From NCBI GenBank assembly GCA_963752475.1, contig CAVVYR010000019.1, positions 64,001-128,000 of the forward strand: a stretch of DNA of 64,000 nucleotides, in the 5' to 3' direction. The position numbers and the translations under genes were made by a program. Shown here piece by piece: positions 36,003 through 58,961 of this stretch (within the stretch, counting starts at the first letter, position 1; each line of letters begins with the position of its first letter). This stretch comes from an uncultured Chloroflexia bacterium (lineage in GTDB: Bacteria; Chloroflexota; Limnocylindria; Limnocylindrales; CSP1-4). The notes under the pieces are model-generated. The model made no database searches and had not been told where the DNA came from. It was given only the letters and a program-made list of their open reading frames with translations.

Positions 36003-36812
36003 TCAGGCGTTCGCTGACTCGATGTCTGTCGGGGCGGGGTCCGGCATGGGCGGGAGTCCACCGTCGAACACGACCCCGGAGACCTGGAGCGTCGGCGTCA
36101 CAGACTCCTGGTCCAGAGAGAGGATGGCGGTCAATCCGTCGTAGGCACCCTGCCCGTCGAGTACCAGGCGGTGATGCCAGCCGCCGGCGCCGAGGCCGCT
36201 CCAGGCATGACCGGAGCCCACCCAGCTGCCTCCGTCGTTCTCGAGATAGTAGGAGCCCGACTTCGGCCCGCCGACGAACGCGATGTGGTGACCGTTGAAG
36301 CGTGCTCGCCCGTACCCGTCGAGTCGATCGTCGTCGAGATCGTACTGGCCGGTCCAGAGCTGATCGGTGATGATCGTGCCCCAGTCATGGTTCTCGGCTA
36401 CGCCATGTTCATCTTCGGACAGGAGCAGGAGCGTCCCTTCGACCTGAGCGATCTCGGTGGGACCTGAAGGCGCCGCGGCCGAGAAGGGCGTCGCCTCGTG
36501 ACTCGGAGGCGTCGCCACCATCAGAGCGCCCACAAGAGCGATGACGGCGGAGATGCCGACTAACTTCGCAGGAGAGAACATCGGTCTGGTCCTTTCGTAG
36601 CGTGGTGGGTCGGTATCGGCCGACGTGATCGGCGCTGTCCGTTCGTCAGCCCCCGCGGTGGGCTTCGGACCGGGCAGGAACCAGAGCCAGCGTCGGCGTT
36701 GTCGGGTGTGTCGGGTCTGGGCGAGCGTGCGTTCCGGCAGCTCGGACGGCATCGGCGGTGTGTCGTCCAGCCAGGTGCGGAAGTCGGGCCCCAGATCGCG
36801 CTGGGCGTTCAT
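36003..36812 (-). CDS. Putative single-pass anti-sigma/partner protein 1 (extracellular beta-barrel-like domain)
   Basis: ATGA overlap with the ECF stop; TRQRRRW; one TM; D.R..G, ENDGGSW and GQGAYDGL motifs. Confidence 0.7.
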   Translation of the reverse strand: MNAQRDLGPDFRTWLDDTPPMPSELPERTLAQTRHTRQRRRWLWFLPGPKPTAGADERTAPITSADTDPPRYERTRPMFSPAKLVGISAVIALVGALMVATPPSHEATPFSAAAPSGPTEIAQVEGTLLLLSEDEHGVAENHDWGTIITDQLWTGQYDLDDDRLDGYGRARFNGHHIAFVGGPKSGSYYLENDGGSWVGSGHAWSGLGAGGWHHRLVLDGQGAYDGLTAILSLDQESVTPTLQVSGVVFDGGLPPMPDPAPTDIESANA

Positions 36813-37366
36813 CGGACGGCCTCCAGTCGCCGCCCGACCGGCGGGCGGTCATCGGCCTCCAGCAGCGCCCGCAGGGCTTCGGTCGCGCGATGGAGCCGGG
36901 ACTTGTAGGTGCCGACCGGGATGTCGAGCACATCGGCGGCCTGATCGGAAGGCATGTCCATGAAGTAGTGGGTCACCAGCACCGCGCGCTGGTCCAGCGT
37001 CAGGCGGGCGAAGCCACGTTCGATCTGGTCCCGGTCGAGGACCGCATGCAGACCGTCGGGCGAGCTCACCGAGCGGGGTGGCTCGATGTTCAACTCGAAC
37101 TTGCGCCAGCGAGCACGCCGTCCTTCGACGAAGCAGGAGTTCAGAAGGATGCGGTAGGCCCAGGCCTCGAAGCGATCGGGGTCGCGCAGGCGTGGCAGGT
37201 CGCGCCAGATGGCCACCATCGCCGACTGCGCCGCATCCTCGGCCAGCCCGGGGTCTCGCAGCATGGCGCAGGCGATCCCGTGGAAGCGCCTCGCGATCGA
37301 GGCCACGATCTCGGCGAATGCACCGTGATCACCCGAGCGGGCTCGGATGACGGTTTCGGTGTCCAC
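36809..37366 (-). CDS. ECF (sigma-70 group 4) sigma factor 1
   Basis: AEDAAQ, FEAWAYRIL (region 2); PVGTYKSRLHRA (region 4). Confidence 0.93.
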   Translation of the reverse strand: MDTETVIRARSGDHGAFAEIVASIARRFHGIACAMLRDPGLAEDAAQSAMVAIWRDLPRLRDPDRFEAWAYRILLNSCFVEGRRARWRKFELNIEPPRSVSSPDGLHAVLDRDQIERGFARLTLDQRAVLVTHYFMDMPSDQAADVLDIPVGTYKSRLHRATEALRALLEADDRPPVGRRLEAVR

Positions 37367-37450
37367 TTGTCCTTCCCCCACGGCCGGCGTGTCCGGCCCT
37401 TCAAGGGTATCGGTGCGTGGAAGCGCTCCAGGGTTCCATCTTGGGCAACG

Positions 37451-37479
37451 AAAGAGGCCCCTCCGCTGCCGGAGGGGCC
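37451..37479 (-). terminator. Intrinsic terminator hairpin, copy A
   Basis: GGCCCCTCCG-CTGC-CGGAGGGGCC with a U-rich tail on the minus strand. Confidence 0.8.
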
Positions 37480-37500
37480 CGACACGTGTCCGATCGATCG

Positions 37501-38283
37501 CTAGTCGGCTGTTTCCCCCAGCAGACCTAGCGCCACGGTGGGCGGGATCTCACCCTGGTACAGGAGGCCCTTCACCTCGAGCCCGAGAAGGCGCCCGGTG
37601 TAGTTGGCGACGTAGCTCCAGCCTTCGTAGTCGCCCGTGCCGCTGGCCCAGGCCATGGCATTCTGGGCGCCGGGCGTCCCGTAGTCATCGTCGTCGCCAG
37701 GCGATTCGTAGAAGCCGACCCACTCGCCCTCCCAGCTGCCGCCGTCGTTGGCGAGCGTGTACTGTCCCCAGTTCACGCCGGTGAGGTCCTCATCTCCGAT
37801 CAGGTATCTGTTGATGAGGTTGGCATGGCCGCTGACCCGGGGGTCGCTCATGCTGTCGTCGCCCGCGGGACTGGGCCCGGCGGACATCGTGCTGGTGCCG
37901 GTGACGACGATGAAGTCGGTCCGCTCGAGCTCTGCGCCCGGAATCGGACCGACCGGATCCGTGGTGAAGACGCCCGAGACGACCAGAGTGGCGGTGACCG
38001 CCAGGACGGCGGAGCCCGCGATGAGCTTGGTGGCGCTGAACATCATCCTTGTCCTTCCTGTGGGTGCGGGTGCGTACTCGCCGGTCTCGTCAGTCGTCCC
38101 CGACGCCGATCGTCCGAGGACGTCGGTGCGGAGGCGTTCCACCAGCGACGCGTTCCACCAGCGACGCGGCTGTCGGGCCTGCGCCTGTCGGCGGATCGAG
38201 GCTGCGTCTATCGGTCGCGGCGCGCCGGCACGATGCTCGAGCTCGGCCGCAAGGCGCTCTTCGAACGCGGTCTTCTCAGTCAT
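37501..38283 (-). CDS. Putative anti-sigma/partner protein 2 (beta-barrel-like domain)
   Basis: Overlaps the ECF stop (ATGACTGA); ARQPRRW; one TM; SDPRVSG, ANDGGSWEG and GTGDYEG motifs. Confidence 0.7.
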   Translation of the reverse strand: MTEKTAFEERLAAELEHRAGAPRPIDAASIRRQAQARQPRRWWNASLVERLRTDVLGRSASGTTDETGEYAPAPTGRTRMMFSATKLIAGSAVLAVTATLVVSGVFTTDPVGPIPGAELERTDFIVVTGTSTMSAGPSPAGDDSMSDPRVSGHANLINRYLIGDEDLTGVNWGQYTLANDGGSWEGEWVGFYESPGDDDDYGTPGAQNAMAWASGTGDYEGWSYVANYTGRLLGLEVKGLLYQGEIPPTVALGLLGETAD

Positions 38284-38815
38284 CGCCCAGCTCCCTGCGG
38301 AGACGCGCCAGCAGGCGCTCGAGTCGGTTGCGCGTTCCGGACGGGCTCAGCCCGATGGCCGCGGCCAGTTCGGTGGAATCGAAGCCAGCGACGTAGCGCA
38401 TGGCCAGGAGGGCACGATCCTCCGGTTCGAGTTCGGCCAAGGCACGCCGCAGATCGAGCCCACTCGCGTTCAGGGCGGGATCGGGCCCGCCTGCGACCAT
38501 CGATGCATCGGTCGCGAGCTCTACGCGCGAGCGGCGACCTCGTCGACGCAGCAACTGCTTGGCCTCATTGACCGCCACCGACACGAGCCATGGGCGCAGA
38601 CGCCGATGGTCCTCGAGGGTGTCGAGCCTGCGCCAGACGATGGCCCAGGCCGCTTGCACGGCCTCCTCCGCGATCTCGTCGTCGTGGCACATGACCACGC
38701 ACACGCGGCGCATGTCCTCGTGGTGCGCGGAGACGATGCGCTCGAAGGCGAGGTCATCCCCGGCGACCGCCGAGGCGACGGTGCCGCTGAGCTCGGTCTC
38801 GACCGTTCTGGCCAT
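38276..38815 (-). CDS. ECF sigma factor 2
   Basis: AEEAVQ, LRPWLVSVAVN and GLSPSGTRNRL motifs. Confidence 0.9.
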   Translation of the reverse strand: MARTVETELSGTVASAVAGDDLAFERIVSAHHEDMRRVCVVMCHDDEIAEEAVQAAWAIVWRRLDTLEDHRRLRPWLVSVAVNEAKQLLRRRGRRSRVELATDASMVAGGPDPALNASGLDLRRALAELEPEDRALLAMRYVAGFDSTELAAAIGLSPSGTRNRLERLLARLRRELGDD

Positions 38816-38884
38816 GCCCCCCATACCCCACAGATGCCGTGGAGGGCTCAAGTGTCCCGCCAGATCGGCAGAAATCAAGGCATG

Positions 38885-38913
38885 AAGAAGGCCCCTCCGT
38901 TGCCGGAGGGGCC
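38885..38913 (-). terminator. Intrinsic terminator hairpin, copy B (23/24 identical to copy A)
   Basis: GGCCCCTCCG-TTGC-CGGAGGGGCC followed by UUCUUC on the minus strand. Confidence 0.8.
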
Positions 38914-38934
38914 TGGTCCGTGCGGGTGTGGAGG

Positions 38935-40578
38935 CTAGAAGTCGACGTCTCCGGTGAAGTGGACCTTCACGCCGAGGGCGTCGAACATGGCAGCCTTGGC
39001 GGCGAGCGCCTTCCTGCCGGTCTCCATGTCCGGCGCGTACACGACCTGGATGTGGTTCGACTTGTGGCGTGCCATGAACTGGTCGCGGTTCATGCCCGGC
39101 GTGACCAGGTGCATGATCGGCCACTGTGGCGTGGTCGCCTGCCAGCGTCGCTCGGTCTCCTCGTCGGGCAGCTCGATGGCCTCGCCGAGGCCCATGTCGA
39201 CGTGCAGCTCGTCGTCCATCAGGAACACGCGGCTGTAGACGACCGGGCCGGGCTTGCTCACGCCCTTGATGGTGCCGCCGCCGAGGCGGAAGTACATCGC
39301 CGGCTGGCGCTGGCTGGTAACGCCTTCGTAGCCGCCCACGAGGTGGCTCGGCGGGACCGAACCCGAGATGAGCATGACCCACACGAAGTCGTCGCCGAAC
39401 TGCTCGCCCCAGCGCACGTCGTGCAGTGAGGTGGAGGGGTTGAGGCCCATGGCCGTCCAGACGCGGTTGGTGATGAGAGCGTCGACTCCGCAGCCCCAGT
39501 CGACCTCGTTGAAGTGAGGCAGGGGCGCGCCCGGGTAGAGCTCACGGCCATCCTCGCTGTAGGCGGGTGGACGGTCGATCTCATTGAGCAGGCCCTCGGC
39601 CAGGTCCGATGCGGGCACCAGGTCCTTGAGACCCTGCTGGTACTGGATGCCGATGCCGGCGCAGCCGAAATCGTCGGCGATGCGCAGGGCAGCGATGTAC
39701 ATCTTGCACTGCTCGAGGACCTGCTCCTCGGTAAGGTCCTCTTCCCAGTTGGGCCCATAGTCGAATGTGACGCCGCGGTCGAGGAGCCACTGGTAGACCG
39801 CTCGGGCCTCCTCGTCCTTGACCGTGGTCATGCGGTAGTAGAGCGCGGACTGACTGAGGCGCTCCTTGAAGATGCCGAGGGGGTTGATGTACTCGTCATC
39901 GAAGATGGCGTTGTACATGCCCATGCAGCCTTCGTCGAAGATGCCCATGACGGCACCGTTGCGCTGCAGCTCGGCGGCGAGGGTCTTGCCCAGGGCCGCT
40001 TCATCGGCCGGGAGGGCGACCGAGTCGAAGGCCTTGACATGGCTCGTGTCGTGAGTGGTGATGGCCCCGGTCTGGGCCCACTCCTGGACGGCCTTGCGCG
40101 CCCACTCGTCGCTGAAATCGACGCTCCAGATCGTGGAGTACTCCATGTTCGCCTTGGTCATCGAGGCGTTGATGTTGAGGAGGCCGACGAGGCCGGGCCA
40201 GGTGCCACTCCAGTTGGCGGCGGTGAGGATGGGGCCGCGCTGCGTCTTGAGGCCACTGAGGATGTGGTGGCTGTACTCCCACACGGCCTCGGCGATGATG
40301 ATCGGCGTATCAGGGTGGATGCCGGCGAAGACATCCATGCCCATGCGCTGGTTCCAGATGAACCCGTGACCTACCTCGGGGTCGTATTCGTGGCCGCGCC
40401 GCACGGTGTAGCCGACCTCGGCGAGCACGTCGGCGATCTGCTGCTCGAGCACCTGCTGCTCCGCCCAGGCCATGACGTTGGCGGTGTGGCGCAGGTCGCC
40501 GCTGGTCACAAGGACGACCTCGTTCGGCTTGGGGGGCGCCGGCTCTGCGAGGGTCGGGACCTTGTATTCGGTAGCCAT
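38935..40578 (-). CDS. L-fucose/L-arabinose isomerase-like protein
   Basis: 547 aa; WPGLVG, GCMGM, NEVD, HDVR and C-terminal SNHIQVVY resemble the FucI/AraA superfamily; near a sugar ABC operon. Confidence 0.75.
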   Translation of the reverse strand: MATEYKVPTLAEPAPPKPNEVVLVTSGDLRHTANVMAWAEQQVLEQQIADVLAEVGYTVRRGHEYDPEVGHGFIWNQRMGMDVFAGIHPDTPIIIAEAVWEYSHHILSGLKTQRGPILTAANWSGTWPGLVGLLNINASMTKANMEYSTIWSVDFSDEWARKAVQEWAQTGAITTHDTSHVKAFDSVALPADEAALGKTLAAELQRNGAVMGIFDEGCMGMYNAIFDDEYINPLGIFKERLSQSALYYRMTTVKDEEARAVYQWLLDRGVTFDYGPNWEEDLTEEQVLEQCKMYIAALRIADDFGCAGIGIQYQQGLKDLVPASDLAEGLLNEIDRPPAYSEDGRELYPGAPLPHFNEVDWGCGVDALITNRVWTAMGLNPSTSLHDVRWGEQFGDDFVWVMLISGSVPPSHLVGGYEGVTSQRQPAMYFRLGGGTIKGVSKPGPVVYSRVFLMDDELHVDMGLGEAIELPDEETERRWQATTPQWPIMHLVTPGMNRDQFMARHKSNHIQVVYAPDMETGRKALAAKAAMFDALGVKVHFTGDVDF

Positions 40579-40629
40579 TTGCTTTCGTCTCCCTTCGAAT
40601 CAGGCTCGTCAGACCATTGTGCACCCTTG

Positions 40630-40643
40630 TGTGAACGTTAGCA
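40630..40643. promoter_or_regulatory. LacI-type operator-like imperfect palindrome
   Basis: TGTGAACGTTAGCA upstream of the isomerase; similar TGTGAGCGTTACCG at 42374-42387 upstream of the SBP gene. Confidence 0.5.
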
Positions 40644-40707
40644 GTGCCGAATTGCCGGGTTCCGTGGGTTCCACATGGACCAGGCTCATCCGTCCTATCG
40701 TTGGGGC

Positions 40708-41242
40708 ATGGTTTGGCAGGTCCGACGAGCGCGTGCGGCCGACATGGAGCGCGGTCGCGGAGATCATCAACGGGCACATCGCCACCGGCTGGGCACACTT
40801 CGGCGATCGACCCCTGACCGCTTCAGAATGGGTGGCCGATTGGGAGGCGTATCAGGAGCGCTATCCCTGGCTCGTGGCCGAGCAGGACGGCGAGATTGCC
40901 GGGCTCGCCTACGGCAAGACGTTCAACCCGCGCGCAGCCTACGACTGGACGGCGGAGGTCTCGATCTACCTGCGTGACGGATTACAGGGGCAGGGAATCG
41001 GGTCGCTGCTGTACGGAGCCCTGATTCCGGCGCTCGACGCACAGGGGTACCGATGTCTGATTGCGGGCATCACGACACCCAACGATGCCTCGGTCCGGCT
41101 TCACGAGCGGTTCGGGTTCGAACACCTCGGGACACTCGAGCGGGTCGGCTACAAGATGGGAGCCTGGCGGAACGTCGGCTCGTGGCAGCGGCTCGTGGGC
41201 CTGATGGATGACCGAGCCGGCACCCATCCGGCCCGTCAGTGA
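40708..41242 (+). CDS. GNAT phosphinothricin/methionine-sulfoximine acetyltransferase-like (Pat/YncA), frameshift near 40750
   Basis: MVWQVRRARAADME in one frame, then AVAEIIN...RAAYDWTAEVSIY...GQGIG...PNDASVRLHERFGF...GYK in another. Confidence 0.8.
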
Positions 41243-41341
41243 GGTTTGGGAGGGCGGCTGAGGCGGAGGCAGCGACCGACCGCGCACGAAGTCGCCCCCA
41301 TCCCCGTCGAGGCGGGAATGGGGGCGCGGTATCGAGTCGGG

Positions 41342-42346
41342 CTACTCGGCGAAATCGCGCGACCAGAGGCTCTCCATCGAGCCCACGTTCTCCTGGGTCG
41401 CGACACGGCCGGCCACCAGGCAGCCGTCCTCGCCGCAACCGGGGTCCTCACCACTCAGGATCGCGGTCAGGACGCGCACGGCCTCCTGTGCATGGGCGAA
41501 GGCGTCGTACGTCGTGGTGACGTCGACATAGCCGTTCTCCATGGCTTCGAGGGCCTCCGGATAGAGGTCCTGTGTCGCCAGCCAGATGTGGTTCTCGTCA
41601 CCCGTCGGAGCCCACTTGCCGGCACTCTCGAGCGCGCTCTCCACGCTGTTGATGGCGAAGTCGGAGGCCACGAAGATGCAGTTCGCATCGGGATTGGCCT
41701 GCAGCGCGTTGGCCGTGCCGGAGAGGAACACCGTCGCGTCCCACTCGGTCGGGACCTGGACGATGGTCTCGTAGGCATCGGTCTCCGCGTCGACCGCGTT
41801 CCAGGCGTCGGAGCGGTTGACCGCGTTGACGTCGGTCAGCGAGCCTTGCAGCTCGATGCACTTGCCGTCCACGCCGGCCTCCGTGAGCATCTCGGCGAAG
41901 GCCTCGGCCGTGGAGATGCCCTGCGCGTAGCTGTCGCCACCGACGTGAGCTGCTGGCTGCGCCGTCGTGGCCGCTCGGTCGAACGTAACGAACGGGATAC
42001 CGGCGTCATCCGCTGCTCGGATCGAGGCGCCCATGGCGGCCGCGTCCTCTGCGCGCGCGATGATGATGTCTACGTCCTGGTTGATGAGGTCTTCGATGTT
42101 GGCCGCCTGACGCGCGGGATCACGGCCCGCAGCGTTGATGATCCACTCGAAGTCCAGGCCCGCTTCGGCGCCCTGGATCTCCGACTGCTCCTGCATGTAC
42201 GTCTCCCAGGCATAGACCAGGGACACGTCGTAGTCGTTCCACGAGAGACCGACCTTCACCGGTTGCGCATCATCCTGCGCTACCGCCGCGCCGGCAAAGA
42301 CGAGGCTGAGCGGAAGGGCCAGACCAAGTGCAAGGGTTCGCTTCAT
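41342..42346 (-). CDS. Ribose/xylose-type sugar ABC substrate-binding protein
   Basis: Signal peptide; Q...IEDLI and AGIPFVTFDR motifs. Confidence 0.9.
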   Translation of the reverse strand: MKRTLALGLALPLSLVFAGAAVAQDDAQPVKVGLSWNDYDVSLVYAWETYMQEQSEIQGAEAGLDFEWIINAAGRDPARQAANIEDLINQDVDIIIARAEDAAAMGASIRAADDAGIPFVTFDRAATTAQPAAHVGGDSYAQGISTAEAFAEMLTEAGVDGKCIELQGSLTDVNAVNRSDAWNAVDAETDAYETIVQVPTEWDATVFLSGTANALQANPDANCIFVASDFAINSVESALESAGKWAPTGDENHIWLATQDLYPEALEAMENGYVDVTTTYDAFAHAQEAVRVLTAILSGEDPGCGEDGCLVAGRVATQENVGSMESLWSRDFAE

Positions 42347-42397
42347 TGCTGATCTCCACTGCTATTGCGGGTGTGTGAGCGTTACCGTGAGCGACGT

Positions 42398-43507
42398 CTA
42401 CTGGTCGCCGGGCGTACGGGGTGGTGGCCGACTCTCCTCCTTTCCTCCTTGGGCACGGGCGTGCTCATCTTCGGGGGATCCCTTGTTGGTCGGGGCATCC
42501 TCGTCGTCGGTGTCGTAGACCTTCACCCACGTCGGGAGCCGTTGCCGTAGTGAGTCGGCGTACATGGCGATGAAGATGATGGCGCCGTTGACGAAGCGGT
42601 AGGCGTATGGGTCGACCGCGAGGTGGTTCAGGCCGTTGCGGATCATCTCGAGGATGAGCACGCCTCGCAGGACCCCGGGCAAGATGCTGCCGTCACCGCC
42701 GAAGAGGCTGATGCCACCGATGATGACCACGGACATGGCCGTGAACTCGTAGCCGCTGCCGATGCTCCGCGAGACGGCGCCGACCTGGAGCACCGTGAGG
42801 ATGCCGCCGATGGTCGCGAGGAAGGCCGAGAGGACGAAGGCCAGGAACGTCACGCGGTCCACACGCACTCCCAGTCGCGAAGCTGTTTCTGGGTCGTTGC
42901 CGATGGCCATGATCTGCCGCCCGAACTGCGTTCGAGTGATGAGCACGTGCACGAGCAGCATCAGACCCAGCGCGATGAGGATGTCGACGAAGACCGGTCC
43001 GATCTGGGTGTTGCCCAGGCGGCGCAGATCCTCGGGCAGGGCCACGTTGGTCGACTGGGTCAACTCCAGGGCCACGCCGCGGAGGGCGATCATCATGGCC
43101 ATCGTGGTGATCAACGGGTTCACCCGTAGCACGGTGATGATGAATCCGTTCAGGGCGCCGATCCCGATGCCGACCATGAGCATCACAGCCAGGGCGATCA
43201 CCGGGTGGACGTCCTCGCGCGTGATGAGCAGGGCGCCGATGGACGCCGTCAGGAAGGCGACTGAGCCGACCGAGATGTCGAGCTTGCCGGTCATCACCAC
43301 CACAGCCAGGCCGGACGCGATGACCATCATCGGGGCTGCCGCGTGCAGCAAGGCCACGAGGTTGGTCACGGCCAGGAAGCGTGGCGCTGTCAGCGAGAAG
43401 AAGACGAAGACCGCGACGAGGATGATGTTGAAGCCGTAGCGCAGCGTGAAGTCGCGCGCCCTCGCGGTCATGGGCATCGAGGACTGAGCGGCTGACATCT
43501 CAGTCAT
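42398..43507 (-). CDS. RbsC-type ABC permease
   Basis: LDISVGS, FGRQIMAIG and IIGGISLFGG motifs; start approximate. Confidence 0.92.
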   Translation of the reverse strand: MTEMSAAQSSMPMTARARDFTLRYGFNIILVAVFVFFSLTAPRFLAVTNLVALLHAAAPMMVIASGLAVVVMTGKLDISVGSVAFLTASIGALLITREDVHPVIALAVMLMVGIGIGALNGFIITVLRVNPLITTMAMMIALRGVALELTQSTNVALPEDLRRLGNTQIGPVFVDILIALGLMLLVHVLITRTQFGRQIMAIGNDPETASRLGVRVDRVTFLAFVLSAFLATIGGILTVLQVGAVSRSIGSGYEFTAMSVVIIGGISLFGGDGSILPGVLRGVLILEMIRNGLNHLAVDPYAYRFVNGAIIFIAMYADSLRQRLPTWVKVYDTDDEDAPTNKGSPEDEHARAQGGKEESRPPPRTPGDQ

Positions 43508-45035: not shown

Positions 45036-45043
45036 GCTCCCTC

Positions 45044-50086: not shown

Positions 50087-50107
50087 TGTGAAGCTGTATG
50101 ACGAGCG

Positions 50108-50335
50108 CTACTCGGTGGCGGCGCCCGCGCACATGTCATTGCTTGGGTCGAGGGTAAGGCCGGATCCCTCGGGCACCGCAAGGTCCTGTTCGTTGTCGCA
50201 GAAGCGATCGTCCTCGATGATCGCGCCTGGCTCCGCGCCGTTGACGCAGATCCCGACGTTCAGCCCTTCCAGCTGGTTCCCGGTGATCGTCGGCGCAGAG
50301 TCCTCGGGCACGATGATGCTGGTGACGCCACTCGC
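50108..50335 (-). pseudogene. Orphan C-terminal remnant of a beta-helix ECF-partner paralog
   Basis: SAPTITGN...FCDNEQDLAVPEGSGLTLDPSNDMC resembles SPVLTGNVSCENGENLWVAEDATPEIDDSNEIC at the end of 47844-49277. Confidence 0.65.
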
Positions 50336-50376
50336 TGGAACTGGACATGACCATCTACTTAGGCTAGTTTCTAGTC

Positions 50377-50631
50377 ATGATTCGGCTCAACATCCACGAG
50401 GCCAAGACGCACCTGTCGCGCTACCTGCCCCTGCTCGAGCAAGGCGAGACGATCATCCTGTGCAAGCGCAACGTGCCGATCGCTGAGATCAAGCCCATCG
50501 AGAAGCGACGGACAGAGCCTCGGAAGCTCGGCCTCGCGAAAGGCGAGTTCGAAGTGACCGACGCGTTCTTCGAGCCTCTCCCAGATGAGTTGCTGGCTGC
50601 ATTCGAGGGCCGGGAGCCCGGTGAGGAGTGA
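50377..50631 (+). CDS. Phd/YefM-family antitoxin
   Basis: NIHEAKTHLSR...GETIIL...P.AE; coupled to the PIN toxin gene. Confidence 0.92.
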   Translation: MIRLNIHEAKTHLSRYLPLLEQGETIILCKRNVPIAEIKPIEKRRTEPRKLGLAKGEFEVTDAFFEPLPDELLAAFEGREPGEE

Positions 50632-51014
50632 AGTTCCTCCTTGACACTGCGACCTTCCTCTTCGCGGCCACATCCGACCGCCGCCTGAGCCCAACGGTAC
50701 GGGACCTCATCGAGAGCCCTTATGACCCGGTCTATCTGAGCGCGATCTCGGCCTGGGAGATCGCCGTCAAGAACGGGCGCGGGAAGCTGCCGCTACCTGA
50801 GCCCCCAGATCGATATGTACCGCGTCTTCGTGAGGAGATGGGCGTCGAGGAGTTGCCGCTGCGGGAGGAGACCATCCTGCGTGTCGGCAGACTGCCGAGC
50901 ATCCACGCCGATCCCTTCGATCGTGCACTCGTCTCGCAGGCCATCGCCATGGGCATGACCATCCTCACGCCCGATGAGGCAGTCCGCCAGTACCCGGTGC
51001 CGACCATCTGGTAG
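50628..51014 (+). CDS. vapC: PIN-domain toxin
   Basis: LLDT, SAISAWEIAVK, HADPFDR and LTPD motifs. Confidence 0.93.
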   Translation: MKFLLDTATFLFAATSDRRLSPTVRDLIESPYDPVYLSAISAWEIAVKNGRGKLPLPEPPDRYVPRLREEMGVEELPLREETILRVGRLPSIHADPFDRALVSQAIAMGMTILTPDEAVRQYPVPTIW

Positions 51015-51081
51015 GCCGCTGCTGGTAGCGTCTATCTGTCCTGGATCGAGCCGATCCATCTGACCGACGCCGAATTGGGGG

Positions 51082-52261
51082 ATGGGCATGGCCTACACCT
51101 ACGCAGTCCTGGGAGGCGGACGACAGGGCACCGCTGCGGCCTACGACATGGCCAAGTGGGGCGACGCCGAGCGTGTGCTCATCGCCGACAGAAGCGCTGA
51201 CGTCGCCGAGGCCTCCGCGGTGCGGGTCGATGACCTCATCGGGCGCCCGATCGCCGAGCCCGTGCAGCTCGACGTCACCGACCATGCCGCGCTCGTCGAG
51301 TTCCTGACGCCGGTCGAATTCCTTCCTCAGCGCCGTGCCCTACTGGAACAATCCCGCCATCACCGAGGCTGCCATCGAGGCCAGGGCCTGCATGACCGAC
51401 CTGGGCGGCAAGACCGACCTGGTCCTCGAGCAGATGAAGCGCACCGACGAAGCCAAGGCTGCCGGCATCGCCATCATCCCTGACTGCGGCCAGGTCCCCG
51501 GCATGGGCACCAGCCTCAGCGTCTATGCCATGAGCCTGCTCGACGAGACCGACGAGATCCTGATGTGGGACGGCGGCAACCCGCTGCACCCCGAGCCGCC
51601 GTTCAACTACATCCTCACCTTCAACATCGCCGGCCTGACGAACGAGTACTACGGCGTGGCCAATTTCATCCGTGGCAGCGAGCGCGTCAAGGTCCCGACG
51701 TTCCTGCCCGAGGACTACGAGACCGTCGACTTCGGTGGCGACATCGGTGAGATGGAAGCTTTCGTCGCGGGCGGCGGCACGTCGACCATGCCCTGGACGT
51801 TCGAGGGGGTGCTCAAGACGCTCTGGAACAAGACGCTACGTTGGCCCGGGCACTTCGACGAGTGGCGCGCCTACACCATCGCGGGCCTGCTCGATGAGGA
51901 GCCCATCGACGTCAACGGCCAGCAGGTCGTGCCGCGTGACGTCCTCCATGCGCTGCTCGATCCCAAGATCAGGGCGGAGGTCGGCGAGCCCGATCTCGTC
52001 ATCGTGCGGGTGCTGGCCAAGGGACGCAAGGGTGGGGTCGATGCTGAGGTCCGCGTCGAACTCATCGACCGCTTCGACGAGACCACCGGCTTCACGGCCA
52101 TGGAGCGGACGACCGGCTGGGACGGCGCGCTCAAGGCCCAGATGAACGCTCACGGCCGGACCCCTCGTGGCGTCAATCCGGCCGAGCTCGCTGTCTCCGG
52201 CCCCGACTACGCCGTCGAGCTGCGCAAGCGCGGCTTCAGCCTGACCGTGGAGTATCTCTAG
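51082..52261 (+). CDS. Saccharopine/lysine 6-dehydrogenase family protein, frameshift near 51317
   Basis: VLGGGRQG Rossmann motif; DLGG, PDCGQVPG, KTLRWPGH and TAMERTTG in the second frame. Confidence 0.82.
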
Positions 52262-52382
52262 CTACTCGACAGAAGGCCCTGGCGGTGCCGGCATCGGCGC
52301 GAGCGGGGCTCGAAGACCTAGCTCGCGAGCTCACCCAGGACGGTCGGGAGCGGGAGCCGCCGGAAGCCGCTTCGTCTGACCT

Positions 52383-52505
52383 GCGATCCTCGGCGGCAAC
52401 AGCACGCTGGCATACGGCACCGCGCTGGGTCTCGCGGTCGCGGTCATCGTCGGCTGCATCATCATCGCCACGGTCGTCTTCGGGCGACGCGACGTGACCT
52501 CCTAG
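52383..52505 (+). pseudogene. Orphan 3' remnant of an ABC-2-type permease
   Basis: Hand translation AILGGNSTLAYGTALGLAVAVIVGCIIIATVVFGRRDVTS*; terminal F.RRD motif. Confidence 0.55.
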
Positions 52506-52584
52506 GCCGCTTCCTGCAGCCCCGACGGTCCACCCTCGGCCGTCGGGGCATCGTCATGTCCACGGTTCTCTAGACTGAGACGGC

Positions 52585-53556
52585 ATGAAGGCCATCGTTC
52601 GAGAGTGCTACGGCGGACCCGAGGTACTCGAGCTGCGTGAGGTGCCGACCCCTGGACCGGGGCCCGGCGAGGTACTCGTCCGTGTGCGCGCCTCGTCGGT
52701 CAACATGGCCGACGTCGACTACATCACGGGCAAGCCGTGGGCGACGCGGTTCGGGACCGGACTGCGCGCGCCCAAGGCGCCCATCCCCGGCATCGACATG
52801 GCCGGCGAGGTCGTGGAGGTCGGCACCGGCACCACACGCTTCTCGCCTGGCGACCGGGTCATGGCCGATCTCTTCGAAGAGGGATCGGGCGCCTGGGCCG
52901 AGTACGTCGCGGTCTCCGAGGCGGCACTCACGCCGATCGCTGATGGTGTTCCGTTGGAGATCGCGGGCGTGACCCCCTCGGCCGGGGTCTTCGGCCTCCA
53001 GGGCATCCGCGACAAGCGTCCGGTCCAGCCCGGTGATCATGTGCTGGTGAACGGCGCGTCAGGCAACATCGGACCGTTCGCGGTACAGATCGCCAAGTCG
53101 TTCGGCGCGGAGGTCACTGGTGTCTGCCGCACCGAGAAGATGCACGTCGTTCGTGAGCTTGGCGCCGACCACGTCATCGATCACACCGCGGAGGACTACC
53201 GCGCCAGCGGCGAGCGCTACGACCTCATCCTCGATATCGCGGGACGAGGCGGAGTCATCGGCCTGCGCGGCTCGATCGAACGCGGTGGCGGCTACGTCGT
53301 CATCGGCGCCAACGGGCGTGGCTACGTCGAGAGCATCCTGCTCGCGCCCTTCATCGGCCTTGCGACCGGCCGCAAGATGGGCCTGCTCATGTGGCGCGTC
53401 AACGACACGAAGGACATGGCCGACCTCGCGGCCATGCTGGCCGACGGGCGCGTCTATCCCCACATCGACTCGAGCTACCCGCTCGAGGGCGTGCCGGAGG
53501 CTCTGGCGCGCGTGCAGGCGGGCGACTTCATCGGCAAGATCGCGATCTCGATCTAG
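52585..53556 (+). CDS. NAD(P)-dependent MDR (quinone reductase-like) oxidoreductase
   Basis: YGGPEVL, PGIDMAG, NGASGNIG and LGADHVID motifs. Confidence 0.92.
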   Translation: MKAIVRECYGGPEVLELREVPTPGPGPGEVLVRVRASSVNMADVDYITGKPWATRFGTGLRAPKAPIPGIDMAGEVVEVGTGTTRFSPGDRVMADLFEEGSGAWAEYVAVSEAALTPIADGVPLEIAGVTPSAGVFGLQGIRDKRPVQPGDHVLVNGASGNIGPFAVQIAKSFGAEVTGVCRTEKMHVVRELGADHVIDHTAEDYRASGERYDLILDIAGRGGVIGLRGSIERGGGYVVIGANGRGYVESILLAPFIGLATGRKMGLLMWRVNDTKDMADLAAMLADGRVYPHIDSSYPLEGVPEALARVQAGDFIGKIAISI

Positions 53557-53597
53557 GACCACCCCAGCTCCTTGCAGGCCGGCGCCGCACGCACAGC

Positions 53598-53647
53598 GCT
53601 ACGAGGTCGGCAGCCCGGCGATGCTACGAGGTCGGTAGCCCGGCGAT
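53598..53647. repeat. 25-bp tandem duplication covering the kinase stop codon
   Basis: GCTACGAGGTCGG(C/T)AGCCCGGCGAT twice. Confidence 0.85.
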
Positions 53648-54971
53648 CGGAAGCGCGGCACGGACCATCGTCGGGCCACCGGGCGGGCTGACGACCTGGA
53701 TCGTGCCGTCGATGGTGGCCACGCGGTCACGCAGGCCGGACAGCCCCCCACCATCCCTGAGCGAGGCGCCGCCCTGCCCGTTGTCCCAGACTTCCACGAA
53801 GAGGCGAGTGGTGTCGCGCCAGAAGATGACGTCTGCGCGGGTCGCGTGGCTGTGCTTGGCCACATTGGCCAGTGCCTCCGTGGCCACGAAGTAGCCAGCA
53901 CGCTCGACGGCCGGGCTGAAGCGGGCGTCACCGACGCGTGCAGCATCGATATTGGTGGGCAGCTGGCTCTTCTGGACGATCGATGCGACCGCCGCCACCA
54001 CCCCACGATCGATGAGGATCGACGGGGCCGTGCCACGCACCAGGTCGCGCAACTCGGAAAGGGCCAGCCGCGATTGCTCGCGGGCATCGGCTACGAGCTT
54101 CTTCGCCGTCTCGGGATCGGTGTCGATCTTCTCCTCCGCCCGACCCAGGTCCATAGCCAGCATCACCAGCCGTTGCTGGGCGCCGTCATGGAGGTCGCGT
54201 TCGATGCGCCGCAGCTCCGAGGCCTCCAGCTCCACGGCAGCCGAACGAGACTCGCGTAGCCGCTCGACGTCCTGGCGAAGGGTCTCGGTGGGGTCGACGC
54301 ACAGCAGGAGCTGCGCGACGGCGCGCTGCACGGTCATCAGGCCCCGCGTGACGAAGGCCGCTACCGGGATGAGCGCCAGGCACATCACGCCGGTCACGAT
54401 CGGCGCGACCACCGGGACCGGCTCACCCTCGAAGCCGCCCGCGCCCAGTGCCGATCACGAGTACGACGGTGGCCATGAAGAGGCCGAACACGATGGCCCA
54501 GACCGCGAACATGAGCGCGAACTCGAGGACCGCGAGGGGGAAGCCGATGAGGACGTAGACGACGTCGCGCCAGCGGCTGAAGTCGAGGAACTGACCCTCG
54601 GCGTACTGCCGTAGCCAATCGCCGTAGGGAGCCGATGGCTGGAACTCGATCGAGCGGTACCGATGTGCGATCACCGGCCGACCGTCGACGAACTCCAGGC
54701 GCCAGCGCTCCGCCCGAGCGACGTAGCGTGCGAGCTCGATGCCGGCGCCGATGATGGGGATGCCCACCAGGATGACGATGAGGCTGCCGCCGATGGACCA
54801 GATGATGAAGAGGCCGTTGAAGCCGACTCCGAGGACGGCCAGGCCGATGAGGATGGCGAGCGCAGCACGCCAGGTGGCAAGGTCGAACGGGGAGAGCAGG
54901 AACGAGCGCAGAGAGAGCGTGGGGGCCGGGTTCGGAGCGGCCTCCGGCGCGCCCCCGCTGACGTTCATCAT
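53624..54971 (-). CDS. NarX/DesK-type (HisKA_3) membrane sensor kinase, frameshift near 54450
   Basis: RIERDLHDGAQQRL, EALANVAKHS, DNGQGG and GLSGLRDRV; hydrophobic N-terminal sensor in another frame. Confidence 0.85.
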
Positions 54972-55007
54972 CTCGACGGTACCACCTGCTGCTTCGCGGA
55001 CTTCTGA

Positions 55008-55769
55008 CTAGGCCGCTGTCGGGATCGCGGTCTGCGGCACGGTCGCGGACGGCATGACCGGCACCACCCCGCGGTCGGCTACGAGCCCGTCGCGCATGTG
55101 CACGACACGGTCGCAGGCGTTGCCCACCTCGGGATCGTGGGTCACGAGCACGATGGTCTGATCGTGCTCGCGGTTGAACCAGCGCATGAGGTCGAGGATC
55201 TCCTTGGCGCGTGCCGAGTCGAGGTTGCCCGTGGGCTCGTCGGCCAGGATGAGCGAGGGCTGGTTGACCAGCGCCCGCGCGGTGGCGATGCGCTGCTGCT
55301 CGCCACCGGAGAGCTCGGCCGGTCGGTGGTCGCCACGGTCGGCCAGGCCGACCAGACGCAGCACGTGCTCGGCGGCGGCTTGCGCCGTGGTGCCCTTGAT
55401 GCCCGCGTAGTCACAGGCCAGCATCACGTTCTCGAGTGCCGTCAGCGTGGGCACGAGGTTGAAGGACTGGAACACGAAGCCCATGCGCGAGGCGCGGATC
55501 TTCGTGCGCTCCGACTCGCTCAGGCGGGTCACGTCCTGGCCTTCGAAGTACAGCTCGGGCTTGGGGCCATCGTCCTTCTCGGGTGCGTGGAGCAGTCCCA
55601 GGATGTGCATGAGCGTGGACTTGCCGGAGCCGGACGGGCCCATGATGGCGACCATCTCGCCCTGGGCGATGCTGACGTCCACCCCGCGCAGGGCGGGGAC
55701 GGCGGCTCGCTTGCCGAGCTGGTAGGTCTTGCGCAGGTCACGTCCTTCGACGATGGCGTTGGTGATCAT
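55008..55769 (-). CDS. LolD/MacB-type ABC ATPase
   Basis: [17 protein letters not shown] and ADEPTGNLD motifs; AAAGGA RBS before ATG 55769. Confidence 0.94.
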
Positions 55770-55828
55770 GTCGAGGTCCTTTCGGGTGTCGAACTGGGTG
55801 CGTGGGTCGTAGAGCAGGCGGGGGTCGG

Positions 55829-56995
55829 TCATTCGTAGCGGAGGGCGGTGACGGGGTCGAGGCGCGCCGCGTGCAGGGCGGGGACGAGGCCGGCGAGGGC
55901 GCCGAGGACCGTCGAGAAGCCGATGGCGGTGACGGCGGTCATGGGCGTCAACAGGAAGAGCAGCAGCCCGGAGTCACGGCCCAGCTCGTTGCCCAGCCAG
56001 GCCACACCGGCGCCGAGGGTCAGGCCGATGACGCCGCCGAGGAAGCCGATGAGCGCGGACTCGGTGACGAATTCCCGGACGATGCGCGTGCGGCTGCCGC
56101 CGATGGCGCGCTTGATGCCGATCTCACGGGTGCGCTCGGCCACGGACATGGCCATGGTGTTGATGACCGAGAGGCCGCCGACGACGAGGCTGATGAGCGC
56201 GATGCCCACGAGGATGGCGTTGAAGATGGCCGTAGCCGACCCGATCTGTTCGTCGAAATCGGCCCCGGTCATGACCTCCAGGGAGGCGTCAGCGGTGCGG
56301 ATGGTCTCAGCCAGGGACTCGAGGTCCACGTCCGCCTGGGGATAGACGGTGAGGCCCGCGACCAACTCGCTAGCCTCGACGTTGCCGACGAGCATCGGCG
56401 GCATGGTCTCGATGAACAGCTCCTGCGCCGCTGCGAGCGGCACCATGGCGGAGGTGTCGGGCATCGTGAGGGTGGGCTCGAGGACCCCGACCACCTCGAA
56501 TGGCGTTCCGCGAAGATCGATGCTGTCGCCAACGGTGAGGTCCAGGCGTCGGGAGAGGTCGGAACCGACCACGGTCACCTGGGAGCCTTCGTCGTCGATC
56601 GTGAGGTCGCGCCCGTTGGCGAGGTTGAGCTCGAAGGCCTCGAAGCCGTCGGCAGCACCGGCGGGCTGGCCCACGACGTAGTCCATGTTCATGGACAGGC
56701 CGGCCTCTTCATCGGCCAAGGGCATCGTGATGTCAGGCACCACCGCGGCCACGCCGGGAAGCTCCGCGACCATGTCGGCCGTCTCGACGCTCATCGGCTG
56801 GCCGAAGCCAAGGCCGGTGCCGCCGGCGGCCACGGTGATCTTGTCGGCGTAGTAGTCGCTGCCGCCATCGACGAGCGCGTTGATCTTGTTGGCCATCGAC
56901 CCGAAGACCACCAGGGCCCAGATGCCGATGGTGATGCCGAGGATGGTCAGTGTGGTGCGGAGCTTCCGGCGCCCCAGGTCGCGTAGCAGCGTCAT
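55829..56995 (-). CDS. MacB/FtsX-type ABC permease
   Basis: RTTLTILGITIG, ERTREIGIKRAIG and PALHAARLDPVTALRYE motifs. Confidence 0.93.
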   Translation of the reverse strand: MTLLRDLGRRKLRTTLTILGITIGIWALVVFGSMANKINALVDGGSDYYADKITVAAGGTGLGFGQPMSVETADMVAELPGVAAVVPDITMPLADEEAGLSMNMDYVVGQPAGAADGFEAFELNLANGRDLTIDDEGSQVTVVGSDLSRRLDLTVGDSIDLRGTPFEVVGVLEPTLTMPDTSAMVPLAAAQELFIETMPPMLVGNVEASELVAGLTVYPQADVDLESLAETIRTADASLEVMTGADFDEQIGSATAIFNAILVGIALISLVVGGLSVINTMAMSVAERTREIGIKRAIGGSRTRIVREFVTESALIGFLGGVIGLTLGAGVAWLGNELGRDSGLLLFLLTPMTAVTAIGFSTVLGALAGLVPALHAARLDPVTALRYE

Positions 56996-57144
56996 CGTTT
57001 CCCTCTTGTCCGTGCTGTGGTGTGGGTGCCCCGGCGGGGGAGTGCCGAGGCGGGTGTTCGGGCAAGTACGACGCTACGGTCGAAGGCGTCGCGAACCAAT
57101 CCGGACAGCGGGCGTCTTTGACCGCGGCGGGCTGGCGTTCTCGA

Positions 57145-57162
57145 GGTGGGGCTAGCCCCACC
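57145..57162. promoter_or_regulatory. Perfect 18-bp palindrome, candidate response-regulator operator
   Basis: GGTGGGGCTAGCCCCACC between the divergent ABC operon and response regulator. Confidence 0.6.
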
Positions 57163-57429
57163 ATCGGCGGGACGAGCGTCGGCTTGGCCTTCCTGACGCG
57201 GCGTGTCTGGTGCCGGAGCCGCCCATCCCGCCGAGGCTGAACTCGACCAGTCAGGCACTTGCGCTGCGGGATCCCAGCCTCCACGAGACTGGGAGTGACG
57301 CTCTCAGCCTCGGTGACGATGAGAACCGGCACTTCGGCTGTGAGATGGTCGAGTTCAACCTCCGTGGGATGGTCAGGCCGTGTGCCGAGCGAGCCCGCGT
57401 GCCGGCGACGCGTGGGGCATCATCGGGGC

Positions 57430-58095
57430 ATGGAACAGCCGCAGCTCCGGGTCGCCATCGCCGAGGATTCGGTGCTCCTGCGTGAAGGGCTCGTCCGTCT
57501 CATCGAGGATGGTGTGGGCACGGTCGTGGCCGCCGTCGGCGACGGACCATCGTTCGTGGCTGCCGTGGTCGAGCACCGGCCTGACGTCTCGGTCGTCGAC
57601 GTGCGCATGCCGCCCACGCAGCGTGACGAAGGGTTGCGTGCGGCCATCGAGGCGCGTCGTCTGGTGCCGCGCTCGCCGATGCTGGTGCTGAGCCAGTACG
57701 TCGAGGCACAGTACGCCTCGGAGCTGCTGGCCGATGGTGCCGGTGGCGTGGGCTACCTGCTCAAGGACCGGGTGGCCGACGTGCGCGAGTTCGACGATGC
57801 GTTACGGCGTGTAGCCGGTGGTGGCACCGCGCTCGACCCTGAGGTGGTCGCGCAGCTGATGGTCCAACGACGGCGCGACGACCGGCTCTCCGAGCTGACG
57901 CCGCGGGAGCGCGAGGTGCTCGCGGCCATGGCGGAAGGGCGCACGAACGCCGGCATCGCCAAGCTGCTCTCGATCACGGAGGGCGCCGCGGAGAAGCACA
58001 TCAGCAACATCTTCGGGAAGCTCGATCTGCCCGGCACCGTCGAGGGGCACCGGCGAGTGCTGGCGGTGTTGGCCTACCTCGACAGCGGCGGATAG
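57430..58095 (+). CDS. NarL/LuxR-family response regulator
   Basis: AEDSVLLREGL, DVRMPP and LTPREREVL...GRTN motifs. Confidence 0.95.
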   Translation: MEQPQLRVAIAEDSVLLREGLVRLIEDGVGTVVAAVGDGPSFVAAVVEHRPDVSVVDVRMPPTQRDEGLRAAIEARRLVPRSPMLVLSQYVEAQYASELLADGAGGVGYLLKDRVADVREFDDALRRVAGGGTALDPEVVAQLMVQRRRDDRLSELTPREREVLAAMAEGRTNAGIAKLLSITEGAAEKHISNIFGKLDLPGTVEGHRRVLAVLAYLDSGG

Positions 58096-58172
58096 GACGC
58101 GCCGAAGCGGCCCCGGCCCGCTCGACCGGGGCCTTGTCCGGCCCGGCCGGCGTGAAGCTTAACGCTTGCCGA

Positions 58173-58961
58173 TCACTCGACCGGCGCCTCGCTCTCGTCC
58201 TCGACCGCGCTCGGTTCGACGGGCGGCGGGTAGTCCGGCGGTGCGCCCGGGAGGATCACACCCTCATATGTCTCGTCCTCTCCGCGCCAAAGCATGAGGG
58301 CCGTCAGACCGTCGTAGGCTCCCTCGCCGTCGAGGCGGTACCACTCACGCGGGTACGTCTCATTGGCGAAGCCGTCGAACTCACCGACCCAGGCACCCTC
58401 GTCGTTCTCGATGCGGAGGGCAGCTGACCAGACCATGGCCCAGGTGTCGGCAGCCAGGTCGACGGGGAAGCTCCGCATGTTGAGGGTCTGGGTGAACCGG
58501 CCAGAGATGCGTGGGTCGGTCGCTTCGAACATGGCGATGCCGCTGTTGTCGAGCAATTCGGCGTACTCGTCGAAGGACCACTCGAAATCCTCGACGCTGG
58601 TGAAGTCGATCTCTTCTGTCCAGGCCCCTGTGAAGCGACTGGCGTCTGGCGTGGTGCCGACGCCCTCCTCTTCGGCGGCGAACAGCTGCGCGCCCGCGAA
58701 ACCTGCGCCGGCGACACTCAGGGTGATGAGCAGCGTAGCCAGCAGGACGGCGGCGACGCGAGCCGTCGGCGAGCCGACGGCGAGGGTGGATGAGATACGC
58801 ATCGGTGGCTCCTTGATGATGGCCAGCCAGCGCGGACGCTGATGGGTCTGCGCGGCCTGGAAGGTGATGCTCTCGAGAGCGGACTCCGACGCCTGCGCGG
58901 CGTCCCGCGCCCGATCGAACTGGTCGGCCACGAAGCGCTCGAAGGCGTTGCTGTCGTTCAT
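58173..58961 (-). CDS. Putative anti-sigma/partner protein 4 (beta-barrel-like domain)
   Basis: ATGA overlap with the ECF stop; THQRPRW; one TM; TDPRISG, ENDEGAW and GEGAYDGL motifs. Confidence 0.72.
   Translation of the reverse strand: MNDSNAFERFVADQFDRARDAAQASESALESITFQAAQTHQRPRWLAIIKEPPMRISSTLAVGSPTARVAAVLLATLLITLSVAGAGFAGAQLFAAEEEGVGTTPDASRFTGAWTEEIDFTSVEDFEWSFDEYAELLDNSGIAMFEATDPRISGRFTQTLNMRSFPVDLAADTWAMVWSAALRIENDEGAWVGEFDGFANETYPREWYRLDGEGAYDGLTALMLWRGEDETYEGVILPGAPPDYPPPVEPSAVEDESEAPVE

Follow-up and report, generated by a model that had tools for sequence, protein, structure and literature searches.

A conserved internal Shine-Dalgarno sequence and in-frame start in predicted ECF anti-sigma genes of Chloroflexota: one gene, two products?

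Extracytoplasmic function (ECF) sigma factors constitute the third major mode by which bacteria transduce signals. The window analyzed here, a stretch of 64,000 nucleotides with 68% GC from an uncultured Chloroflexia bacterium (assembly GCA_963752475.1, contig CAVVYR010000019.1, positions 64001-128000; contig 19 of the genome referred to below as G000), contains four sigma genes, each with an adjacent partner gene for a predicted single-pass membrane protein, and the subject of this report is a second, internal translation start in these partner genes. A sequence-only reading of the window had proposed that each partner gene encodes two products, a membrane-tethered anti-sigma factor and a shorter, sigma-free form. 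The window holds four sigma-70 region-2 matches, and all four open reading frames (ORFs) carry the Pfam domains Sigma70_r2 and Sigma70_r4_2 above cut-off; with a length of 187 to 196 amino acids in three genes, and an uncertain start in the fourth, they fit ECF (group 4) sigma factors.

All four pairs lie on the reverse strand. Sigma gene 1 (36809-37381; 190 amino acids; Sigma70_r2 1.7e-12, Sigma70_r4_2 1.7e-11) shares the ATGA of its stop codon with the start of partner 1 (36003-36812), whose long form of 269 amino acids comprises a predicted sigma-binding domain (approximately residues 1-50), a variable linker, a helix and a beta-barrel ectodomain. Sigma gene 2 (38276-38878) has a candidate TTG start preceded by a Shine-Dalgarno (SD) sequence, its start being uncertain with the ORF open to 39382; of the 368 amino acids over which the ORF 38276-39382 is open, the r2 and r4_2 domains occupy just the C-terminal 150 or so. 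The ATG of partner 2 (37501-38283; 260 amino acids) lies 8 nucleotides inside the end of this sigma gene (offset -5). ATGA overlaps also join sigma gene 3 (49274-49837; 187 amino acids; r2 2.4e-15, r4_2 5e-12) to partner 3 (47844-49277; 477 amino acids), and sigma gene 4 (58958-59548; 196 amino acids; r4_2 5e-13, r2 7.2e-10) to partner 4 (58173-58961; 262 amino acids). Each partner is adjacent to, co-oriented with and coupled to its sigma gene, by ATGA in three of the four pairs and by the 8-nucleotide overlap in the other; the sequence-only reading had all four starting across the sigma stop codon, which is correct for the three ATGA pairs, while partner 2 overlaps the last sigma codons in addition to the stop. 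The first two pairs (36003-39382, reverse strand) represent a tandem duplication, and a GC-rich terminator-like hairpin (GGCCCCTCCGG...CCGGAGGGGCC followed by a T-run) is found ahead of each.

Inside every partner ORF an SD sequence followed by an in-frame ATG lies exactly where the sequence-only reading had placed it, at an SD-ATG distance of 5 to 8 nucleotides, and in all four the corresponding Met stands 0 to 11 residues ahead of the sole hydrophobic helix. In partner 1 the SD AAAGGA (36590-36595; codons GAA AGG A(CC), encoding Glu-Arg-Thr) is located 8 nucleotides before ATG 36581 (M78), and the predicted short form (36003-36581) would be a protein of 192 amino acids that begins with MFSPAK(L) and consists of the helix and the ectodomain. 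Partner 2 carries AGGAAGGA (38052-38059; codons (AC)A GGA AGG A(CA), encoding Thr-Gly-Arg-Thr), in which AAGGA at 38056-38052 precedes ATG 38046 and ATG 38043 (M80/M81) by 5 or 8 nucleotides; its predicted short form (37501-38046, from either ATG) would begin with MMFSATKL. In partner 3 the SD AAGGAG (49131-49136; codons AAG GAG, Lys-Glu) precedes ATG 49124 by 6 nucleotides, giving a predicted short form (47844-49124) that starts at M52 with MHTDSRVAVGSPTARV and the helix, and in partner 4 the same AAGGAG (58809-58814) stands 6 nucleotides before ATG 58802 (M54), the start of a predicted short form at 58173-58802.

The arrangement extends across the genome. Among 41 sigma-70 region-2 matches genome-wide, 30 are followed by a partner ORF of at least 60 amino acids starting at -1 (ATGA or GTGA), and of 35 coupled partners, 30 were retained after exclusion of five with no helix or with a helix at the extreme N-terminus. 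An ATG or GTG within -15 to +3 residues of the helix, preceded by an SD whose duplex with the anti-SD reaches -7.0 kcal/mol or lower, was present in 19 of these 30 partners, and in 20 at a threshold of -6.2. By comparison, only 5% of 13,236 internal in-frame ATGs from 2,272 confident ORFs reach -7.0 kcal/mol, and an exact SD match of at least 5 nucleotides is found at 4.3% of such ATGs and one of at least 6 nucleotides at 1.3%. With a longer anti-SD tail, 15 of the 30 partners fall at the 5th percentile of this null (binomial P = 2e-12). The organism does use SD sequences: its 16S rRNA tail is canonical (CCTCCTT), and a strong SD precedes 24.7% of first ATG or GTG codons compared with 5.1% of internal ATGs. 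Elsewhere in the N-terminal coding regions of the partner genes the in-frame ATGs have no SD, the distance from the purine run to the internal start is 4 to 9 nucleotides (mode 6), and in two members of the genome with Val in place of Met the codon is GTG. Programmed frameshifting was considered and dropped, no slippery sequence adjoining the SD.

The peptides encoded over the SD are diverse (GRT, ERT, RGF, KGF, PGG, WRY, WRF, WGF, RRT and KEP; 40 tetrapeptides among the 97 members of the census described below), and the codons that spell it are rare in this genome, where AGG and AGA account for 4.5% and 1.0% of Arg codons and GGA and GGG for 6.4% and 13.8% of Gly codons. The sequence-only reading had asked for conservation of the SD and the Met to be measured against a synonymous-codon null. 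When codons were resampled with the peptide fixed, chance was rejected at P < 0.05 in 14 of 22 genes that had been chosen beforehand at a duplex of -5.5 or lower (Fisher 8e-16, a pooled value that is overstated because paralogues and orthologues are not independent). Within the window the resampling gave P = 0.04 for partner 1 and P = 0.026 for partner 2; for partner 3 it gave P = 0.84, and the three KEP-type genes, two of which lie in the window, use the preferred codons AAG and GAG, so that the test is powerless there (P about 0.84). Moreover, in an orthogroup of 24 non-redundant sequences with a mean protein identity of 49%, the Gly in the SD is encoded by GGG in 20 of 20 cases and the Arg by AGG in 22 and AGA in one of 23, whereas three other conserved Arg columns use CGN in 62 of 64 cases and another conserved Gly uses GGC in 22 of 22. 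Two codons past the start region likewise favor rare A/T-rich forms, namely AGT (12 of 23) and CCA (16 of 24). This codon conservation indicates that the internal SD and start are held by selection on nucleotides, as 'one gene, two products' predicts.

Selection on the protein rather than on the nucleotides is the least probable of the explanations that we weighed, and scarcely credible. It would posit a juxtamembrane motif, basic residues or Gly followed by Met, that serves topology or protease recognition, with the SD likeness arising incidentally from the codons for Arg, Gly and Trp. Basic residues ahead of the helix do fit the positive-inside rule, which is established knowledge, and MFSA.K is conserved in one large subfamily; nevertheless, the resampling rejects chance with the peptide fixed, a wide variety of peptides is encoded over the SD, and AGG or AGA encodes the SD Arg in all 23 of 23 sequences, against the near-exclusive CGN of the other conserved Arg columns.

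The surroundings of the internal site also resemble those of a start. The minimum free energy of a 60-nucleotide segment is -14.6 kcal/mol at the internal start and -16.4 at putative true starts, and 445 control windows from the same genes fold more stably than the internal start, at -20.4 (Mann-Whitney P = 4e-7). GC content at the first codon position falls from 0.73 to 0.435 around the site. Weak local mRNA structure and rare, A/T-rich codons just past the ATG are characteristic of sites where translation begins. The internal site thus combines an in-frame start, an SD at functional spacing and conservation beyond chance.

To follow the family in relatives, a profile of the N-terminal 100 amino acids was built from 20 paralogues. 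It matched 10 of 12 genomes of the same genus, and in eight genomes of a sister family with reduced genomes it gave just two marginal matches with stops inside. At class level 46 of 201 genomes were positive (22 of 60 in family f1, 23 of 66 in family f4, and G000), a tally that counts two unpublished genomes, G138 and G172; at phylum level 10 of 301 were positive, namely G000 and nine others (f1 4 of 15, f4 5 of 15), and no matches were found in families other than f1 and f4 in this sample of 301. The relatives appear in record titles as 'uncultured Chloroflexia', 'Chloroflexota' or 'Candidatus Limnocylindrales'; a few matching bins are labelled proteobacteria, for which mis-binning is probable. 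An internal start with a strong SD was present at 20 of 25 genus-level and 16 of 28 class-level loci (29 less the unpublished L065). Many loci match in the helix part only, most of them with a second type of N-terminal domain (M.DMTAFERQ...) outside the reach of a single query.

For a census of the start codon, 145 entries positive by hidden Markov model (HMM) were aligned and 97 non-redundant members kept by their five post-Met residues, a choice blind to the Met column itself. The codon in that column was ATG in 82, GTG in three, CTG in three, ATC and CGC in two each, and ACG, AGG, GTC, AAG and GCT in one each, and the duplex reached -7.0 or lower in 81 of the 97. In a search among 1.84 billion proteins, the N-domain profile matched 3,793 representative clusters, defined at 50% identity, with E <= 0.001, of which 426 reached E <= 1e-10, a sizeable anti-sigma family if the assignment given below is correct. 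Of the best 150 of the 3,793 clusters nearly all have the N-domain at residue 1, and 137 have a helix; among these, Met is found at -15 to +3 of the helix in 130 of 137, compared with a Met frequency of 1.2% elsewhere in the same proteins. Similarly, 26 of 27 orthologues of the 36003-36812 gene have M in the Met column. The residues that follow vary by subfamily (MFSALK, MLTATR, MNTYAKL, MADKVLQ, MRISSTL), while the Met is constant.

These numbers bear on an explanation in which only the long protein is made and the internal SD pauses elongating ribosomes after the sigma-binding domain has emerged and before the helix is translated, which would leave time for newly made sigma to be captured co-translationally or for the chain to be targeted to the membrane. 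SD-programmed pausing in mRNAs of membrane proteins has reportedly been proposed, and SD-induced pausing is itself disputed. The location of the SD exactly at the domain boundary fits this explanation, as do six members that have kept the SD after loss of the ATG (L137, L114, L123, L122, L136 and L103). Pausing would leave unexplained the 85 ATG or GTG codons among 97 members at 4 to 9 nucleotides past the SD, the Met in 130 of 137 representatives despite differing residues after it, the rare A/T-rich codons (AGT, CCA) downstream of the ATG and the open mRNA structure, and we consider it unlikely.

The N-terminal part upstream of the internal start contains a conserved domain of about 45 amino acids with the pattern M..D....L..WL......PD..L..VL.....TRQR..WW, and invariant and near-invariant residues within it are shared by 27 orthologues of the 36003-36812 gene. 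The motif [TA][RH]QxxRW noticed in the sequence-only reading is present in all four partner ORFs of the window, and the proposal that the stretch upstream of the internal Met is translated and conserved is likewise borne out, for 45 to 80 residues, by codon composition, conserved columns and orthologues: GC content at codon positions 1, 2 and 3 is 0.73, 0.56 and 0.79 in this part, coding-like when set against 0.68, 0.52 and 0.83 downstream, and 64% of 22 genes have an SD of their own at the upstream start. The N-terminal part has no match in Pfam or NCBIfam (E <= 0.1 / 0.01) and no sequence match in the PDB, and a PDB profile search with an alignment of the N-domain and helix returned merely two chance-level matches to membrane proteins (E > 4). 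A class I anti-sigma domain (ASD) of the zf-HC2 or RskA type was rejected, there being no profile match and a conserved domain of just about 45 amino acids, compared with about 100 for the four-helix class I domain.

Structural modeling of the N-terminal region with its cognate sigma factor, one of the checks suggested by the sequence-only reading, gave a confident complex. For sigma 1 (36812-37381) and partner residues 1-50, the interaction prediction score from aligned errors (ipSAE) was 0.83 in three of three runs, with 0.00 for the best of three controls; 58 of 80 solved complexes scored at this mark, as did 2 of 110 mismatched pairs, counts that are only roughly valid here because our own alignments were used. 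At least 88% of contacts were common to the runs, and the partner had a predicted local distance difference test score (pLDDT) of at least 73. In the model, partner residues 6-42, including the TRQRRRW motif, contact sigma residues 17-64 (region 2) and 115-171 (region 4). The model supports binding of the N-terminal domain across regions 2 and 4 of the cognate sigma factor, and the long form would therefore plausibly be a membrane-tethered anti-sigma factor, as the sequence-only reading had suggested. An arrest-peptide role for the RQxxRWW motif was also considered and was dropped because these residues lie in the modeled interface with sigma.

It might be argued that the upstream start is simply mis-annotated, with the short form as the only real product and the stretch ahead of it an untranslated leader kept open by GC richness. 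Long open frames are indeed common at 68% GC, and the protein database entry for the 36003-36812 gene (P0033) is called as the 192-amino acid product starting at the internal Met. Against this, the stretch has the coding composition and invariant residues described above, starts in an ATGA or GTGA overlap at 30 of 41 sigma genes and often with its own SD, stands at residue 1 in nearly all of the best 150 of 3,793 matching clusters, and is confidently modeled on sigma regions 2 and 4; this explanation is very improbable. The orthologues of the gene are called at full length (262-291 amino acids) and, where the source names them, all as 'hypothetical protein', so automatic gene callers disagree on the start within this family. 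Since either start may be picked, the sigma-binding domain can vanish from annotations, and ECF sigma factors of soil Chloroflexota can then look 'orphan'. A plain start ambiguity does seem to apply, as the sequence-only reading had supposed, at 55769-55832 in the window. There, the first ATG of an ABC-transporter ATPase ORF (55008-55832, reverse strand) shares an ATGA with the stop of the gene ahead and lacks an SD (duplex +1.5), and another ATG at 55769 (M22), with AAAGGA before it (duplex -5.6), precedes the conserved start of the ATPase.

Downstream of the internal Met, the members of the family share a helix and differ in what follows it. The ectodomains include beta-helix or NosD-like folds (P0003, L003, L014), an NHL propeller (L017) and propeller-like repeats (L007, L016), and the remaining ones belong to no known family in Pfam or NCBIfam. 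In the window, partner 3 has a right-handed beta-helix or NosD-like ectodomain (Pfam Beta_helix 5.7e-26, NosD 6e-20; NCBIfam para_beta_helix), and the ectodomain common to the three other genes, including partner 4, is modeled by AlphaFold2 as an 8-stranded antiparallel beta-barrel (pLDDT 87.5). Foldseek found weak matches of the barrel to the AbyU/Cyc15 Diels-Alderases, DUF3224 and allene oxide cyclase (E about 2e-3, template-modeling score 0.4-0.5), and the best score for the P0004 ectodomain in the ESM Atlas was 0.77, to an unnamed Chloroflexota cluster.

The same barrel is present in at least six stand-alone secreted proteins of the genome, which have classical cleavable signal peptides and no N-domain (G000 C4:254836-255399, C8:586387-586746, C4:174346-174663, C4:66380-69687 and C29:236105-236545). 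They share the motifs DPR.SG ... NDGGSW.G ... G.G.Y.GL, one of them consists of two barrels in tandem, and no Pfam or NCBIfam model exists for the family. This distribution, together with the diversity of the ectodomains, would fit a history, offered as an alternative in the sequence-only reading, in which an anti-sigma domain was repeatedly fused to genes for secreted proteins and the SD and ATG are their decaying former starts. Several observations led us to reject it as highly unlikely. The signal peptides of the stand-alone paralogues (MR..., AxA-Q) are unlike the Met and helix of the ECF partners, whereas the Met and helix segment is homologous among members with unrelated ectodomains and travels with the N-domain, not with the cargo. 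The N-domain, SD, Met and helix would therefore have been inherited as one unit, and the SD would not be a leftover of captured genes. In addition, the rare codons of the SD hardly change among proteins that are 49% identical, while synonymous sites elsewhere vary, and two families within the class have the feature.

The genome also has two decayed copies. In one (G000 C36:44300-46300, reverse strand) sigma region 4 continues directly into the juxtamembrane part of the partner (...AMRYVAAVVRSVATKSPMWRFWSMFTATK...), and in the other (G000 C8:270158-270805, forward strand) the Met has no SD and a frameshift separates the member from its ectodomain.

The helix has a hydrophobic core of about 18 to 23 residues, and in the MFSALK type a Pro/Thr-rich linker without an AxA site lies past it; from the core length and the linker, we infer that this helix is a signal anchor and not a cleaved signal peptide. 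In the KEP type, AxA-like sites are present, and the assignment as anchor or cleaved signal is ambiguous.

Taken together, the four partners are best explained as members of a lineage-specific family of single-pass anti-sigma factors in Chloroflexota, and it is probable that dual initiation on one ORF yields both a long anti-sigma factor and a short, membrane-anchored isoform devoid of the ASD. The conserved module would comprise a sigma-binding domain of about 45 amino acids, a variable linker, an SD with an in-frame ATG (rarely GTG) and a transmembrane helix, and would be joined to unrelated ectodomains such as beta-helices, beta-propellers, small beta-barrels and others. From the upstream start, which lies across the sigma stop (ATGA) behind an SD of its own, the sigma-binding long form would be made in step with sigma and would hold it at the membrane. 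The internal SD and ATG would load ribosomes independently and give rise to a short form beginning at the helix, with a cytoplasmic tail of about 5 to 15 residues, the same N-in/C-out topology as the long form and no ability to bind sigma. In the role that we prefer, the bulk of the surface protein would be short form, and the long form would serve as a sigma-tethered 'sentinel' copy, such that degradation, occupation or depletion of the ectodomain pool would also release sigma and re-induce the operon; a short form that acts as a decoy or titrator and sets a threshold for regulated proteolysis is about equally possible. More tentatively, and with considerable doubt, we suggest that these modules form a 'sentinel isoform' circuit, in which the cell would monitor its own surface proteins through a sigma-tagged stoichiometric copy: loss, cleavage or ligand occupancy of the pool would also affect the tagged copy, and sigma would be released to replenish it. 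Sensor and output would then be the same polypeptide, and the circuit would explain why about 20 paralogous modules carry unrelated enzyme-like or binding ectodomains and not dedicated sensor domains.

Some observations weigh against dual initiation of an anti-sigma gene. Four of the 30 partners have no ATG or GTG near the helix, and several HMM-positive members lack the site. In the six members named above the SD is kept though the ATG is replaced (by ATC, ACG, AAG or CTG); these could be recent losses or long-read errors, and an SD without ATG also fits a function of the SD that needs no initiation. The preselection of the resampled genes, the interdependence of the pooled P values and the powerless KEP-type genes belong here as well, and the complex model may pass partly through the likeness of the sigma factor to solved ECF/anti-sigma complexes. 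RNA data from four runs of one sediment study contained 10-14% of the words and gave only sparse contigs on 40001-60000, which are uninformative on an internal transcript start or expression because they are short, of low depth and at 95-99% identity, without ends or strand, and with DNA carry-over possible.

Among the related loci no clear case of a natural split or of a stand-alone short form was found. In two contigs of metagenome-assembled genomes (L115 and L109) an in-frame stop lies just upstream and the N-domain is in another frame from the helix and ectodomain; the shift falls at the G-run of the internal SD, where a long-read homopolymer error is probable. Were the shift genuine, these genes would be naturally split, and the membrane protein could be expressed solely from the internal start.

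Several paralogous sigma operons outside the window share a conserved leader, a TACC(C/A)T(A/G)TAGAGG box followed by a GGACCG...CGGTCC hairpin about 60 to 90 nucleotides before the sigma start (G000 C14:27700-27830, C6:586360-586490, C8:274290-274420, C5:70280-70400, C29:236860-236980, C25 and C6:810400-810520). In place of the box and hairpin, GGAAC-N16-17-CGT-like ECF promoter motifs stand before other sigma genes, among them the four in the window. An Rfam search of three sigma leaders identified no family, the sole match being an unrelated tRNA.

In its overall layout the long form resembles RsiW, RsiV, RsiP and RseA, which likewise have an N-in/C-out topology, a cytoplasmic sigma-binding part, a single helix and a sigma-coupled gene. 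These four are controlled by regulated proteolysis, and we know of no second start in any of them. They differ from the family described here in having class I ASDs, about 100 amino acids long on average according to the available text of PMC7406223. A likeness also exists to class II (CnrY/NepR-type) anti-sigma factors, in which an ASD of fewer than about 50 residues is encoded adjacent to and co-oriented with the ECF sigma gene and is followed by a membrane anchor. As far as the available text of the same source describes it, two helices of CnrY contact sigma regions 2 and 4 (PMC7406223), and the modeled N-domain would contact both regions in the same manner, a likeness in mode of action and not in membership. 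The Chloroflexota family differs from class II in its lack of detectable sequence similarity to Pfam families, NCBIfam families or PDB chains, in its large and diverse ectodomains, and in the conserved internal SD and start.

Internal in-frame initiation itself is already known. IF2 and ClpB are produced in this way as further N-terminal proteoforms, next to those from chemotaxis and secretion systems. The latter include CheA-L/CheA-S and the short forms of the type III secretion sorting-platform proteins SpaO, SsaQ and YscQ. In these cases, as is proposed for the partners, an SD and an in-frame start within the ORF direct the synthesis of a truncated product without the N-terminal domain, which serves a role of its own (PMC13515050, available text); the same text of this review contains no occurrence of 'anti-sigma' or 'sigma factor'. 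An anti-sigma gene with an internal start was not found in a full-text literature search, the scope of which leaves out most subscription journals and supplements, and the application of internal initiation to an anti-sigma family was thus not found described. Two features set the present family apart from the known proteoforms: the part missing from the predicted short form would be precisely the sigma-binding domain, with anchor and sensor retained, and the arrangement, rather than being confined to one gene, is conserved across a paralogous family of about 20 members in a single genome. Should both starts be used, the family would represent a family-wide conserved bacterial signaling gene that encodes its own regulator-free isoform, and would add a layer of control to ECF signaling beyond the ECF classifications examined.

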